Of a stretch of DNA of 55,950 nt, positions 44,238-47,469 are shown one piece after another; position 1 is the first letter of the stretch, and each line of letters starts with the position of its first letter. The notes below the pieces were generated by a model that saw only the letters and a list, made by a program, of their open reading frames with translations, was not told the DNA's origin and searched no databases. The translations under genes were made by a program, and so were the position numbers. Origin of the DNA: Fibrobacterales bacterium (lineage in GTDB: Bacteria; Fibrobacterota; Fibrobacteria; Fibrobacterales; JAOPTW01); assembly GCA_051532055.1 (NCBI GenBank), contig JAOPTX010000040.1, forward strand, positions 1-55,950, read 5' to 3'.

Positions 44238-44633
44238 ATGTTTACCATCCGCCATCAACAAATACAGATTCTGAGTAAGAACTCGAGGGTTAGCTTTATT
44301 CATAAAATGAGTGAACATCTCCGTCATCATTTTCCCGAAGATACTCAATCAATTTCCAATAGTGTACTGCACGACAAGATTGATAGTGCTCTATACAGTG
44401 CTGCATCATTCGGCATAGATTCTGATCAAGATGTGTGTCGCTATTTAAATCTGAGTCTCTATTTAGGTTGGTCTTTTTTGAGTGATCCAGAGTATGCGTG
44501 GGTGATAACAATGTTGTCGGAGCGGGGTACTGAATCAGTGGGTAAGCGCCTTGTTGAGGTTCAACGTCAAGCTCTCTTTGAAATAGAGAGTCAAAAGGCT
44601 ATGGAGGAAGAAGTTATGAGGAGTGGACGATGA
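44238..44633 (+). CDS. Small helical protein resembling the T6SS chaperone-associated region found with DUF4123 proteins
   Basis: GGAGA RBS before ATG 44238; MFTIRHQQI...FIHKMSEHLRHHFP...AASFGIDSDQDVCRYLNL...LGWSF..DPEYAW pattern; no signal peptide. Confidence 0.6.
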   Translation: MFTIRHQQIQILSKNSRVSFIHKMSEHLRHHFPEDTQSISNSVLHDKIDSALYSAASFGIDSDQDVCRYLNLSLYLGWSFLSDPEYAWVITMLSERGTESVGKRLVEVQRQALFEIESQKAMEEEVMRSGR

Positions 44634-45148
44634 CCAAACAAGATAGTACACAATTACGCAACGCTGATTCGAGCGCTCAAGGGCTGAGTCCTGATGAATC
44701 ATCTGTATCTGCTGTTGAGGAGTGCCCACTCAAGAAAAAAAAACGGCCTTTCACGATGCAATTGCGAGGGCGCGAAGGGCCGTATGCCGACACACCCTAT
44801 GAGCTGATTGTAGACGGACAACGAGTGAGTGAGCAAGGGGCACAGACCTCAAACGATGGCTCAATCACCCACGACATAGCTAAAACAGCAACGAAGGGGG
44901 TGCTCAATGTCTGGTTTGAGGGGAGCGAAGTGCCTGAGGTGTATCCTTTGGAACTATTAGAACCGGTTTCCCAGGAAAGTGACGAAGGTTTTGTGGGAAG
45001 TGTGCGTGCCTTAGGTATTCATCCTAATGTCAATGGAGAACTTACTGATGTTCATATTAAAGCACTTCAGCGTGTATTGGGTATAACTGAGACAGGGGTG
45101 GTTGATACTCTACTTCGTGCAAAAGTAGCCGTTAAAGAAGGAGCCTGA
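44630..45148 (+). CDS. Putative adaptor: transthyretin/Ig-like domain plus degenerate peptidoglycan-binding domain
   Basis: ATGA overlap with the upstream gene; VEECPL...PYADTPYELIVDG...QTSNDGSITHDI; C-terminal IKALQRVLGITETGVVD. Confidence 0.55.
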   Translation: MTKQDSTQLRNADSSAQGLSPDESSVSAVEECPLKKKKRPFTMQLRGREGPYADTPYELIVDGQRVSEQGAQTSNDGSITHDIAKTATKGVLNVWFEGSEVPEVYPLELLEPVSQESDEGFVGSVRALGIHPNVNGELTDVHIKALQRVLGITETGVVDTLLRAKVAVKEGA

Positions 45149-45152
45149 TTCT

Positions 45153-46139
45153 ATGCCGACTGACGTTGCGATTCTTTCGTGGAATATAAAAGATGTAAAC
45201 AAAGATATGATTAATGATGCCTCCTTCATTGCTATGGTGGTCAAGGTCATTAAGAATCAGAATGTTCATTGTGTTTCTATACTCGAAACTAAAGGCAATC
45301 AGGGTTTAAATTTTGGATCCAAACTCAAGGCGTCTCTTGGTGGTTCTTGGGATGCTCAGGAAAGTGAAAAAAGTGCAAAGCATAGTAATAAGCCAGAAAA
45401 TTATCTTTTTCTTTGGGATGATGTAACGGTAAAGGCTCCCGGAAAAATATTTAAGTTTCCAATCACTTCTAAATACATTCCGTGGAATATTGGTGTTGCC
45501 ACTAAGATTGGATATCCAAATCGGCATGATACAACAAAAAAACAAAAGCCTTCTCGGTTTCCATTTATTGGAAAATTTAGAGCCAATACTACTGATTTTA
45601 CGTGTGTAGTATTTCACACTACCTTTGCATCGGTTCATATTGCAGAATCGAACCAAAACCTTGGGTATATTGATGAGGTCAATGATGATGCTCATGTGAT
45701 TGTCATGGGAGACTTTAATGATGACCCCAATAATAGTAGATCGTATAAAACTATTCCAGGCTTTAAACCTTTGGAGGATGCCGGTCTAACCTCCCACATA
45801 ACAGCCAAGACGAGTTTGAAACAGGCGTTTATACCAACATGGGCGAACACACTCGATTGCCGCGCAAATGTATATGATAATGCCTTTGTGAAAGGACTTA
45901 CGGTTAAAAGCGCCGTTGTTGTAGATCTAGTCGATGCCTTACAGCATCCAAATTGGCTGAGTGTCGAAGGGAGAACGCTCTTTAATAGTTGGGCTACACG
46001 TCAAAATACCAAGAAGGGTGCGAGTAATGTTCTTTTTACAGCAGGAGAAAATATAGCTAATCTTGAAGATGCTCATGAAACGCATTGGGTAGCTGTTAGT
46101 GATCATTTACCCATTAAGATTACAATGGAGGTTCCTTAA
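45153..46139 (+). CDS. DNase I-like endonuclease/exonuclease/phosphatase (EEP) family protein
   Basis: LSWNI, ILET, ENYLFLW, SRFPFIGKF, VFHT, VMGDFND, YDNAF and VSDHLPI catalytic motifs; AAGGAG RBS; no signal peptide. Confidence 0.9.
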   Translation: MPTDVAILSWNIKDVNKDMINDASFIAMVVKVIKNQNVHCVSILETKGNQGLNFGSKLKASLGGSWDAQESEKSAKHSNKPENYLFLWDDVTVKAPGKIFKFPITSKYIPWNIGVATKIGYPNRHDTTKKQKPSRFPFIGKFRANTTDFTCVVFHTTFASVHIAESNQNLGYIDEVNDDAHVIVMGDFNDDPNNSRSYKTIPGFKPLEDAGLTSHITAKTSLKQAFIPTWANTLDCRANVYDNAFVKGLTVKSAVVVDLVDALQHPNWLSVEGRTLFNSWATRQNTKKGASNVLFTAGENIANLEDAHETHWVAVSDHLPIKITMEVP

Positions 46140-46143
46140 ATTT

Positions 46144-47469
46144 ATGTCACGCTCTTCTCAATTCGCATATGAACTTTTTATTCGTACAGCAAGCATGGAC
46201 CCAGGCTTTATTTCCCTCTTTTCTGAACTCTTAGGGGAAAAAAAAGTTTGGAGTTTCAATACTTCAATGCCAGATGGCTCACAATCACAATTACTTTGGA
46301 GTGCTTTAGGGGCACAACGCCTCGCTATTAGAGAATATTATGTGCAAGGAGTACCGCACCGTGATCGTATGCCGTTTAATTTCCCCTTTCAAGTAATACT
46401 TACCGTCGACGTCTGGGGAAACAGGCCGTGTGTTCACCTTGCAGCGTATTACGAAAATGAGGGATTTGAGCCGGTGAGCTTTACGGCGATTCTCGACTAC
46501 GAGCAGTTGCCTTCTGATCTGAGTGTCGATAGATTATTTTCTCATTGGCTCAGTGGTTTTTTTGATGGAGTTGGCGTAGCTCCTGATATTTTTGAGCAAG
46601 TATTAGAAAGCTGTAATCCATTAGGGGTTGATAGTATCACAATTATCGCACAACGAAAAGACGAACGATTTGACATAGGCCAGATTGATGTCACCGTATC
46701 GTCACTTGCTCCCGATGAATATTCTATCAATGTGCTTCCTATGTTTCCGAGTGTCACCAATTATGCTGTTTCATTTGTGACTTCCACTCCTGGGCCTATT
46801 GGGGATGGTGATAAAGAATGCTCTTTAAGTGGTTCATTTCCCATTGGATCTACATGGTTCGATCTATCGAGTAATTATCCTTATGCGATTGTTGAGGTAA
46901 ATATGGTGCGGTCACCCAATGGACGTCGCGCTTTTAAATCTGATCCCCTTTCTATTCTATACATCGCACAATTATTTAATGAACCTGGAGGTGCGGCGTT
47001 TGAAGGTCTCACCTGGCTTCTGACTGATATAACAATGCAATATGATGGAGCTGATGGTGGGTTCTATCTTGATGCAACACTTCATGAACCGAGAAGAGTT
47101 GGTCAACAATTGATAGTACTCGATGCGGCAATACATGTGACGGGACGTTTTGTAAACCGAGTAGGCCTTGTTTTTGTCTCATTTTCGGTAGAGGGAGAAA
47201 TTATGATTCCTCAAACATTTGAAAGAGCATGGGCTGAAGCAGAAATTGAGTATGCATCGAATGTGAATCAGTGGAGGCATTCCCTAAAAATACAACGAGA
47301 ATCCGCTCCTGATCTTGGACTTGCAAATGTATCAATGTTTCATTTACTCTCACAGATAGGGCCAATCGTAGAGAAACCGACCCCTGTTTATTGGGATTCA
47401 AAAAACGTTATTCAGCGGTCACAGCACCGTGGAGGGGATTATCATTTGTGGAAGGGGCCTTTTGGATAA
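46144..47469 (+). CDS. Hypothetical beta-rich cytoplasmic protein, last gene of the nuclease operon
   Basis: ATG 46144 lies 4 bp after the nuclease stop; 441 aa; no signal peptide or recognised catalytic motif. Confidence 0.65.
   Translation: MSRSSQFAYELFIRTASMDPGFISLFSELLGEKKVWSFNTSMPDGSQSQLLWSALGAQRLAIREYYVQGVPHRDRMPFNFPFQVILTVDVWGNRPCVHLAAYYENEGFEPVSFTAILDYEQLPSDLSVDRLFSHWLSGFFDGVGVAPDIFEQVLESCNPLGVDSITIIAQRKDERFDIGQIDVTVSSLAPDEYSINVLPMFPSVTNYAVSFVTSTPGPIGDGDKECSLSGSFPIGSTWFDLSSNYPYAIVEVNMVRSPNGRRAFKSDPLSILYIAQLFNEPGGAAFEGLTWLLTDITMQYDGADGGFYLDATLHEPRRVGQQLIVLDAAIHVTGRFVNRVGLVFVSFSVEGEIMIPQTFERAWAEAEIEYASNVNQWRHSLKIQRESAPDLGLANVSMFHLLSQIGPIVEKPTPVYWDSKNVIQRSQHRGGDYHLWKGPFG

Follow-up and report, generated by a model that had tools for sequence, protein, structure and literature searches.

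A four-gene cassette with a DNase I-type nuclease in a Fibrobacterales genome, probably an orphan cargo-effector cassette of its host's type VI secretion system

A 55,950-nt stretch of DNA from a Fibrobacterales bacterium (assembly GCA_051532055.1, contig JAOPTX010000040.1, positions 1 to 55,950; called the window here, and its contig C40) was analyzed for the nature of four genes, g1 to g4, at positions 44238-47469 of the + strand (Table 1). The open reading frame (ORF) listing and the junction sequences confirmed the layout described by an earlier reading that a model had made from the letters only (the sequence-only reading): the four genes are co-oriented, the stop of g1 and the start of g2 overlap in ATGA, and 4 nt separate g2 from g3 and, again, g3 from g4. 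Ribosome-binding sites, AGGAG and GGAGG, precede g3 and g4, respectively. For g1, the start at 44238 was taken instead of the ATG at 44214, since the former has a GGAG 8 nt before it and the paralogs likewise open with MF[VT]IR. We propose that the four genes probably form an orphan cargo-effector cassette of the host's type VI secretion system (T6SS), in which g3 would be the toxin and g4 its immunity protein. The observations behind this reading are the anatomy of the gene set, the identity of g3 as a member of the endonuclease/exonuclease/phosphatase (EEP) superfamily, the recurrence of g2-g3-g4 and of g3-g4 in other sources, the T6SS of the host, and the genomic association of the g1 and g2 families with vgrG, DUF4123 and PAAR genes and with toxin-immunity pairs.

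Table 1. The four genes and the promoter-like site in the window, and the gene order at loci of other genomes that carry g1 relatives (aa, amino acids)
Feature or locus	Position	Strand	Description
promoter-like site TTGATA-18-TATTAT	44116..44145	+	10/12 consensus matches; in the AT-rich spacer 5′ of g1
g1	44238-44633	+	131-aa helical protein; T6SS-linked family without prior characterisation
g2	44630-45148	+	172 aa; disordered N-terminus with an ECPLKKKK motif, Ig/transthyretin-like beta-sandwich, weak PG_binding_1-like helical tail
g3	45153-46139	+	328-aa DNase I-type EEP nuclease, without N-terminal delivery domain
g4	46144-47469	+	441 aa, acidic, mostly beta, no known fold
L051, L052, L055 (Acidobacteriota)			ClpV, VgrG, DUF4123, PAAR, g1-like (Pfam annotation and ORF reading)
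L054			VgrG, DUF4123, PAAR, g1-like, Ntox15-like (177 aa, E 2e-4), HEAT (173 aa), TssL, TssM
L053			VgrG, DUF4123, g1-like, 133 aa, LysM/PG_binding_1, 1346 aa
G041:C63			g1-like, CarboxypepD_reg protein, LysM/PG_binding_1, 817 aa, 471 aa; close to the end of its contig
G041:C98			g1-like and g2-like with ATGA overlap, then unrelated 209-aa and 523-aa genes, transposase
G041:C1			g1-like, two genes away from a LysM/PG_binding_1 gene
L100, Methylobacter sp. YRD-M1 plasmid	9001-11611		g1-like (tblastn E 4e-12), WHH/colicin-DNase, SMI1/KNR4, D123/ATP-grasp-like

The g3 protein scored 27.3 bits against Pfam PF03372 (cut-off 24.5), which places it in the EEP superfamily, and matched NCBIfam MnuA weakly, below threshold (48.5 versus a cut-off of 185). 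Its family is rare, with 13 clusters found by a word-indexed search of 5.8 billion proteins. In the alignment of this family N11, E45, H155, D187, N189, D242, D317 and H318 were invariant in 13 of 13 members, so that the complete DNase I/EEP catalytic set noticed in gene 3 by the sequence-only reading was borne out at all eight positions; we take these residues to match those of DNase I. The best solved relatives of the family profile were DNase gamma (E 1.7e-11) and DNase I (E 5e-9), and profile positions 4-226 aligned with DNase I residues 1-231. Because the alignment starts from the first residues of the mature enzyme, g3 begins at the catalytic core and is therefore a bare DNase I-type catalytic unit that lacks a delivery domain. 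Judged by family and catalytic residues, g3 is a DNase I-type EEP nuclease with predicted DNA cleavage activity; a role as T6SS cargo toxin, which would be secreted and toxic, is proposed. The isoelectric point (pI) was above 7.6 for 10 of the 13 family proteins. When genome contigs were scanned with the g3 alignment, the matches listed included one true relative, in the Bryobacterales genome described below, and 19 short matches to generic EEP motifs, and the scan of viral contigs returned only a 15-residue motif match. A distant EEP relative (23.5% identity over 99% of g3) was observed on plasmid pHAU01 of Herpetosiphon aurantiacus (L032, 9001-14378), where the EEP gene is followed by a gene for a 1446-aa hypothetical protein, with FtsK/SpoIIIE, RadC and SWIM genes near. 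This may be a different EEP-partner system.

The module recurs outside the host. A Bryobacterales metagenome-assembled genome (MAG) carries, at locus L002, a LysM/PG_binding_1 gene, a g2 homolog, a g3 homolog and an overlapping 459-aa gene, in this order. The g2 homolog (BLASTP E 2e-19 to g2) lies directly upstream of the g3 homolog, which shares 42% identity with g3. Between the 459-aa protein and g4, BLASTP showed nothing, and only the profile comparison with hhalign connected the two (probability 76%, E 2e-5 over 198 columns). The 220-aa LysM/PG_binding_1 protein of the same locus resembled g2 weakly (probability 18%). Moreover, a 1.2-kb metagenome contig (L023) encodes the C-terminus of a g2 protein followed by g3, and a pattern scan of metagenomes gave four loci, three of which were chance matches. 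In Duganella rhizosphaerae, relatives of g3 and g4 stand on consecutive locus tags, RugamoR64_48670 and 48680. Relatives of both were also found together on a 76,412-bp contig and on a 134,238-bp Gemmatimonadota contig. The view of the four genes as a recurring unit was thus upheld for g2-g3-g4 in the Bryobacterales MAG and for g3-g4, which are adjacent in Duganella and share a contig in two further sources.

Another explanation of g3 is an ordinary metabolic or repair EEP enzyme, such as a phosphatase or a nutrient-DNA nuclease, that has its neighbours by chance. The EEP superfamily is functionally broad and the Pfam score is barely over the cut-off, but g3 is coupled in translation to partners whose conservation extends across phyla, the best solved relatives of this small family (13 clusters) are DNases, and a signal peptide, needed by an extracellular nuclease, is not seen. 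We regard this explanation as highly improbable.

For g1, g2 and g4, no Pfam, NCBIfam, PADLOC or PHROG family was found, and the search of PDB sequences with their profiles gave nothing meaningful. The word-indexed search for g4 homologs returned g4 alone, and an exhaustive phmmer search returned seven relatives. Genes related to g4 were always adjacent to relatives of g3 or shared a contig with them. The g4 family is strongly acidic (pI 4.4-5.1, net charge -13 to -36), and across the same sources the identity was 38/33/26% for g4 versus 58/54/44% for g3, indicating that g4 diverges faster. The AlphaFold2 (AF2) model of g4, with a mean predicted local confidence (pLDDT) of 80.4 and a predicted TM-score (pTM) of 0.73, is alpha/beta at the N-terminus and continues in a long beta-meander. 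With this model, Foldseek gave no hit at E <= 1e-3 (best E 2.6e-3, TM 0.13), and the best VIA score, Z 6.8 to beta-barrels and OspA-like sheets, is at background level. The prediction of a g3-g4 complex scored 0.00 in two runs, which weighs neither for nor against binding. Because g4 lies directly downstream of the toxin gene, diverges faster while co-varying with g3, and is strongly acidic, it is most likely the cognate immunity protein, that is, the nuclease inhibitor, of g3. A QRGG motif was observed at the C-terminal residues 428-431 of g4; R429, G430 and G431 are present in 8 of 8 sequences, and the motif falls in a flexible, low-confidence tail of the model.

Other roles within a T6SS cassette were considered for g4, which could be a co-effector, a carrier or a pre-loading scaffold, with self-protection provided elsewhere, for example by g2 or by g3 being inactive until delivery. 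Such roles would suit a 441-aa protein, far above most immunity proteins in size, whose extended beta-meander has a weak likeness (Z 5.0-6.7) to OspA-like sheets, to part of an Rhs shell and to pieces of phage spikes and whose flexible C-terminal tail holds the invariant QRGG motif. On the other hand, the place of g4 directly 3′ of the toxin gene, where the junctions overlap or nearly do so, its divergence and co-variation with g3, and its acidity all fit immunity, and no other immunity candidate is conserved with g3. We therefore judge this arrangement unlikely and keep g4 as the probable immunity protein.

The sequence-only reading had placed the delivery machine, a T6SS or an extracellular contractile injection system (eCIS), elsewhere in the genome. 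For the T6SS this proved right. Contig C1 of the host assembly, which is 94% complete, carries thirteen T6SS genes, both core and accessory (TssK, L, M, A, B, C, Hcp, TssE, F, G, ClpV, VgrG and DUF2169) at about 43.9-63.1 kb (L029, L030), making up a complete system of the proteobacterial type, with TssC scoring 440.9 bits. Genome-wide, there is a single VgrG, a single PAAR protein and a single DUF4123 gene, which lies on contig C22. As had been noted, vgrG and PAAR are missing from the window; the genome-wide searches for VgrG, PAAR, DUF4123 and TssC matched C1 and C22 only, and never C40. For the eCIS, no match in the genome was found to the sheath family PF04984, with working controls, or to the gp19-type tube family PF06841, in a search from which a positive control was absent, and the eCIS reading was dropped. 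Also on C1, a minus-strand stretch (L029, 216-3491) encodes a DUF2169 protein, a PAAR protein with a C-terminal CarboxypepD_reg (transthyretin (TTR)-like) domain and a 369-aa unknown, and is likely a third effector locus. Just 3′ of the T6SS cluster (L030, 9150-10833), an MbnB/TglH/ChrH-type enzyme that modifies ribosomally synthesized and post-translationally modified peptides (RiPPs) was observed (E 4e-96), together with a DUF2063 partner.

The sequence-only reading had likened gene 1 to the helical companion of DUF4123 chaperones. The g1 protein itself is no DUF4123 member, as it gave no match to PF13503 at E up to 1; the association stood for its relatives, which occur with DUF4123 genes at 7 of the 11 g1-like loci found outside the window. 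The nearest Atlas neighbours of g1 are unnamed proteins of 114-131 aa from Myxococcota and Pseudomonadota. The host genome contains exactly one paralog, of 112 aa, on C22 (tblastn E 4.6e-6). It stands at the end of an operon that also encodes an 841-aa protein with a C-terminal HExxH and a 370-aa lipoprotein, and this operon is divergent from the host's only DUF4123 gene and a gene for a 216-aa beta-rich protein; we note this whole stretch (L028, 9675-15228) as a second putative effector locus of the host. In a sister genome of the same genus (G001), DUF4123, 224-aa, g1-like, 1042-aa and 594-aa genes follow each other in one orientation.

A g1 profile was built from four sequences, one row of which came from G041:C98, and was run over 201 Acidobacteriota genomes. 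It found seven places in six genomes, five of them with the order vgrG-DUF4123-(PAAR)-g1-like (Table 1). Over the 11 loci, vgrG was within three genes in five. At two of them the g1-like gene lies directly 5′ of a nuclease toxin gene and a probable immunity gene, Ntox15-like with HEAT in one and WHH/colicin-DNase with SMI1/KNR4 in the other. The latter, the Methylobacter cassette, has AbiE genes on one side and the remnant of a type I-E CRISPR-Cas system on the other. Two longer g1-like proteins, of 245 aa and 258 aa, were compared with g2, and their C-terminal extensions were not g2-like. The DUF4123 proteins that adjoin g1-like genes are short (172-215 aa), and the Bryobacterales MAG has one DUF4123 gene and three dispersed g1-like cassettes. 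Colautti et al. (2024; PMC11582642) describe the DUF4123 adaptors, by which effectors are tethered to the spike, as having two lobes, a conserved N-lobe that binds the spike and a variable C-lobe that binds the effector; in the TecT/co-TecT system these two lobes are separate genes. Because the neighbouring DUF4123 proteins are short and g1-like genes stand in the position of co-TecT, we propose by analogy that g1 may be a partner of the co-TecT type, namely an effector-specific co-adaptor in the slot that co-TecT holds.

Gene 2 had been read as a TTR-like segment together with a decayed peptidoglycan (PG)-binding domain. A beta-sandwich is indeed present, at residues 38-110, the only good part of the g2 model (pLDDT 81-91), and its likeness to TTR-like domains (Z 6.1-6.8) is only generic, with the best unrelated Ig-like domain at Z 7.8. 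Foldseek found nothing for the model at E <= 1e-3. The match to PF01471 (PG_binding_1) is sub-threshold (E 0.026; 15.2 bits versus a cut-off of 23). LysM-bearing relatives of g2 pass PF01471 with E 1e-6 to 2e-16, and in the nearest Atlas clusters 13-77% of members carry PF01471. The Atlas neighbours of g2 are small PG_binding_1 proteins, with or without LysM, from Acidobacteriota, Myxococcota and Pseudomonadota.

Over the same 201 Acidobacteriota genomes, a g2 profile matched 22 places in five genomes (9, 5, 4, 3 and 1 each; the 9 in G041), mostly LysM-bearing proteins of 207-262 aa. Eighteen new g2-related places, each of at most 9 kb, were scanned with hidden Markov models (HMMs) built from sequences of this analysis. 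In four of the 18 the g2-related gene lies directly 3′ of vgrG and 5′ of a 420-711-aa gene, and L053 likewise has its g2-related gene directly 3′ of vgrG. The genes that follow in these four places encode an M12B-like peptidase, a protein with a sub-threshold match to C39-like peptidases and two unknowns, and a Pfam check showed a PAAR gene downstream in two of the four. One of the 18 places adjoins a g1-like gene. The linkage of the g2 family to vgrG is real but partial. At loci L079-L096 the LysM/TTR/PG_binding_1 proteins were usually seen directly 5′ of a large gene (550-1350 aa) of no known family, and solitary pairs of a PG-binding protein and a large protein may be orphan cassettes themselves. 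The g2-like gene of G041:C98 (hhalign probability 96%) has the same ATGA overlap with a g1-like gene as in the window, and other genes downstream. A Cys-plus-basic motif was also noticed by eye in accessory proteins whose genes neighbour g1-like or DUF4123 genes, as ECPLKKKK, AECPLKKK, PCPYEKK, PFCEECEK..K and PFCEEC (g2 residues ~29-39; L053 9051-9449; L042 9280-9930; L028 14578-15228; L098 977-1450), with a weak hhalign signal in the L053 case only (probability 51%). For g2, a role as adaptor or co-secreted accessory is proposed.

These neighbourhoods allow two further explanations to be weighed. In the first, the cassette would serve anti-phage defence or abortive infection, with g4 sensing infection and releasing g3, and with g1 and g2 as regulators. 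This would agree with the accessory, patchy distribution across phyla and with the fast evolution of the nuclease partner; the AbiE and type I-E CRISPR genes beside the Methylobacter cassette, and the distant EEP gene before a gene for a 1446-aa hypothetical protein on the Herpetosiphon plasmid, point the same way. However, the g1 and g2 families sit inside vgrG-DUF4123-PAAR operons, g1-like genes precede classical polymorphic-toxin/immunity pairs, and a PG-binding-like accessory is out of place in a cytoplasmic sensor system. The four proteins gave only two noise-level PADLOC matches, to Cas5e (E 0.03-0.05), and no PHROG or phage match, leaving the anti-phage role that the sequence-only reading had offered as an alternative unsupported. 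We think such a function quite improbable.

In the second explanation, given an equally low probability, g3 and g4 would be a toxin-immunity cassette independent of the T6SS, either a polymorphic toxin exported in some other way or a toxin-antitoxin-like addiction module that acts inside the cell. Several secretion routes are found with WHH/SUKH pairs, and 4 of the 11 g1-like loci and 13 of the 18 g2-related places show no T6SS gene in view. Both module-bearing genomes that were checked nevertheless have a T6SS, the Bryobacterales one with two TssC genes. In addition, no signal peptide was seen by eye in any of the four proteins, no eCIS sheath was found in the genome, and g1 relatives hold a stereotyped position in vgrG-DUF4123-PAAR operons.

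We thus return to the orphan T6SS cassette as the probable reading, with g3 as cargo toxin and g4 as immunity protein proposed by likeness to vgrG-adaptor-effector-immunity operons. Secretion, toxicity, the immunity role of g4 and all physical interactions are what we infer. In the proposed mechanism, g3 would be delivered into neighbouring cells and degrade DNA there. In the cytoplasm of the producer, g4 from the same operon would bind and block g3, probably through charge complementarity or occlusion of the active site. The g1 protein, specific to its cassette, would bind the effector and work together with the host's only DUF4123 protein, a short (N-lobe-only) one from C22, as co-TecT does with TecT. 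The g2 protein would couple the toxin to the VgrG or PAAR(-TTR) spike, or would be co-delivered.

Several points weigh against this reading. The window holds no vgrG, PAAR, hcp or DUF4123 gene, so that linkage in cis is missing. The stretches seen around the four g1-like loci and the 13 g2-related (LysM/PG_binding_1) places counted above, the latter of at most 9 kb, are free of T6SS genes. The g1 protein gave no DUF4123 match, and its likeness to co-TecT is one of position. A 129-aa gene 3′ of the g4-like gene in L002 looked g1-like by eye and was rejected as a g1 relative after comparisons detected nothing. The Duganella and Gemmatimonadota pairs are known from sequence records and not from wider gene neighbourhoods. 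For an immunity protein, g4 is large. Finally, the sister genome G001 has a T6SS without the cassette, a point that shows only accessory status.

The cassette is regarded as accessory because it is absent from the sister genome, which carries another gene at the same spot. At this syntenic position (G001:C76, L037, 4713-6899) an unrelated 728-aa gene was observed and the F5/8-type gene is rearranged, a variable spot within the genus. Among 41 genomes, g4 was present in the host genome (G000) and in none of 40 relatives. Since T6SS genes occur in only 2 of the 41 genomes sampled from the order (TssC in both, which belong to one genus), the system was probably acquired horizontally, and the T6SS and its cassettes are probably recent acquisitions. 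The G+C content of the cassette shows no difference from its surroundings. The AT-rich spacer 5′ of g1 is 184 nt long and contains one promoter-like site (Table 1); such sites number 11 in the region versus a shuffle mean of 10.4, which is not above chance and makes this site weak evidence. The flanking genes are unrelated to the cassette and encode a VWA/YfbK-type lipoprotein, DUF1569 and GGACT proteins, a Fib_succ_major protein, in keeping with a Fibrobacterota host, and a 782-aa secreted protein (window 47746-50094, minus strand). In the latter, F5/8 type C, collagen triple-helix repeats and a thrombospondin/spondin TSP1 domain are combined, an unusual, eukaryote-like mix.

With respect to what is known, the literature searches found no DNase I-like/EEP T6SS effector and no EEP defence system, with supplements and most subscription journals outside their scope. 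The terms 'DNase I' and 'EEP' are absent from the text covered of the polymorphic-toxin catalogue of Zhang et al. (2012; PMC3482391). The available part of Danov et al. (2024; PMC11297309) describes PG-binding domains in 68 predicted eCIS toxins and contains nothing specific to this cassette. As an orphan effector cassette of a T6SS, the present one would combine a toxin fold new for this kind of system, a new immunity family and two accessory families that are uncharacterised. The bolder claim that it holds three new T6SS families, namely the first DNase I-fold antibacterial effector, a 440-aa acidic beta-sheet inhibitor of DNase I-type enzymes with a new fold, and a detachable g1 co-adaptor, is made tentatively, and we rate it as doubtful.

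The discovery of T6SS effectors leans on marker genes and domains. The g1 and g2/LysM-PG-binding families flank diverse toxins (EEP, Ntox15-like, WHH, probable HExxH, M12B-type and C39-like peptidases) and could mark orphan effectors in phyla that have received little study, among them Fibrobacterota, Acidobacteriota and Gemmatimonadota. Together with a large inhibitor of its own, a toxin of the DNase I fold would make a new pair of nuclease and inhibitor. The presence of one short DUF4123 gene and several dispersed g1-like cassettes, both here and in the Bryobacterales MAG, provides a testable model of a single spike/adaptor serving many effectors. If this is true, the g1 co-adaptor would allow several dispersed effectors to be loaded by one short DUF4123 protein from another locus, and new toxins could be gained as self-contained plug-in cassettes with no need for a second vgrG or adaptor gene. 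A further unrecognised class of vgrG-proximal adaptor would then be represented by the LysM/TTR/PG-binding relatives of g2.

Compared with known nucleases, g3 has the fold and the full catalytic set of DNase I, DNase1L3 and the bacterial MnuA-type EEP nucleases. Those enzymes are Sec-secreted or membrane-anchored and stand alone, whereas g3 has no signal peptide, is tied to an obligate acidic partner and carries insertions (328 aa versus about 260). Among cassettes, the WHH/colicin-DNase and SMI1/KNR4 (SUKH) pair on the Methylobacter plasmid is similar in having a nuclease gene, then an immunity gene, and a g1-like gene before them, but its toxin and immunity families differ and g2 is missing there. 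The Tde/Tdi (Ntox15) cassettes with DUF4123 (Tap-1) after vgrG share the operon logic of vgrG, adaptor, nuclease and immunity, and an Ntox15-like gene follows the g1-like gene in L054; the cassette in the window lies apart from vgrG, and neither its toxin family nor its immunity family has a relationship to Tde or Tdi. The g2 sandwich superposes on the C-terminal TTR-like domain by which VgrG1 holds Tle1 (PDB 6sjl) with Z 6.7 and a root mean square deviation of 1.8 Å over 55 residues, a match no better than those to many unrelated Ig-like domains (best Z 7.8), and g2 is free-standing instead of part of a VgrG. The host's own PAAR protein also carries a TTR-like domain (CarboxypepD_reg), as VgrG1 does.

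Like the cassette as proposed here, the PAAR4-TecT-co-TecT-TseT-TsiT system of the Pseudomonas aeruginosa H2-T6SS combines a cargo effector that is a DNase and an immunity gene next to it, according to the summary in PMC11582642. In the same system, TecT is a short DUF4123 protein with a separate small effector-binding partner, co-TecT, and the relatives of g1 occupy the corresponding slot after DUF4123/PAAR and before the toxin gene. Unlike co-TecT, g1 has no detectable similarity to DUF4123 and is likened to it by position only. The nuclease fold of TseT differs from the DNase I/EEP fold of g3. The cassette in the window further departs from the TecT/co-TecT arrangement in that its DUF4123 and PAAR genes are on other contigs, and it contains g2 as an extra protein with a beta-sandwich and a PG-binding-like part.

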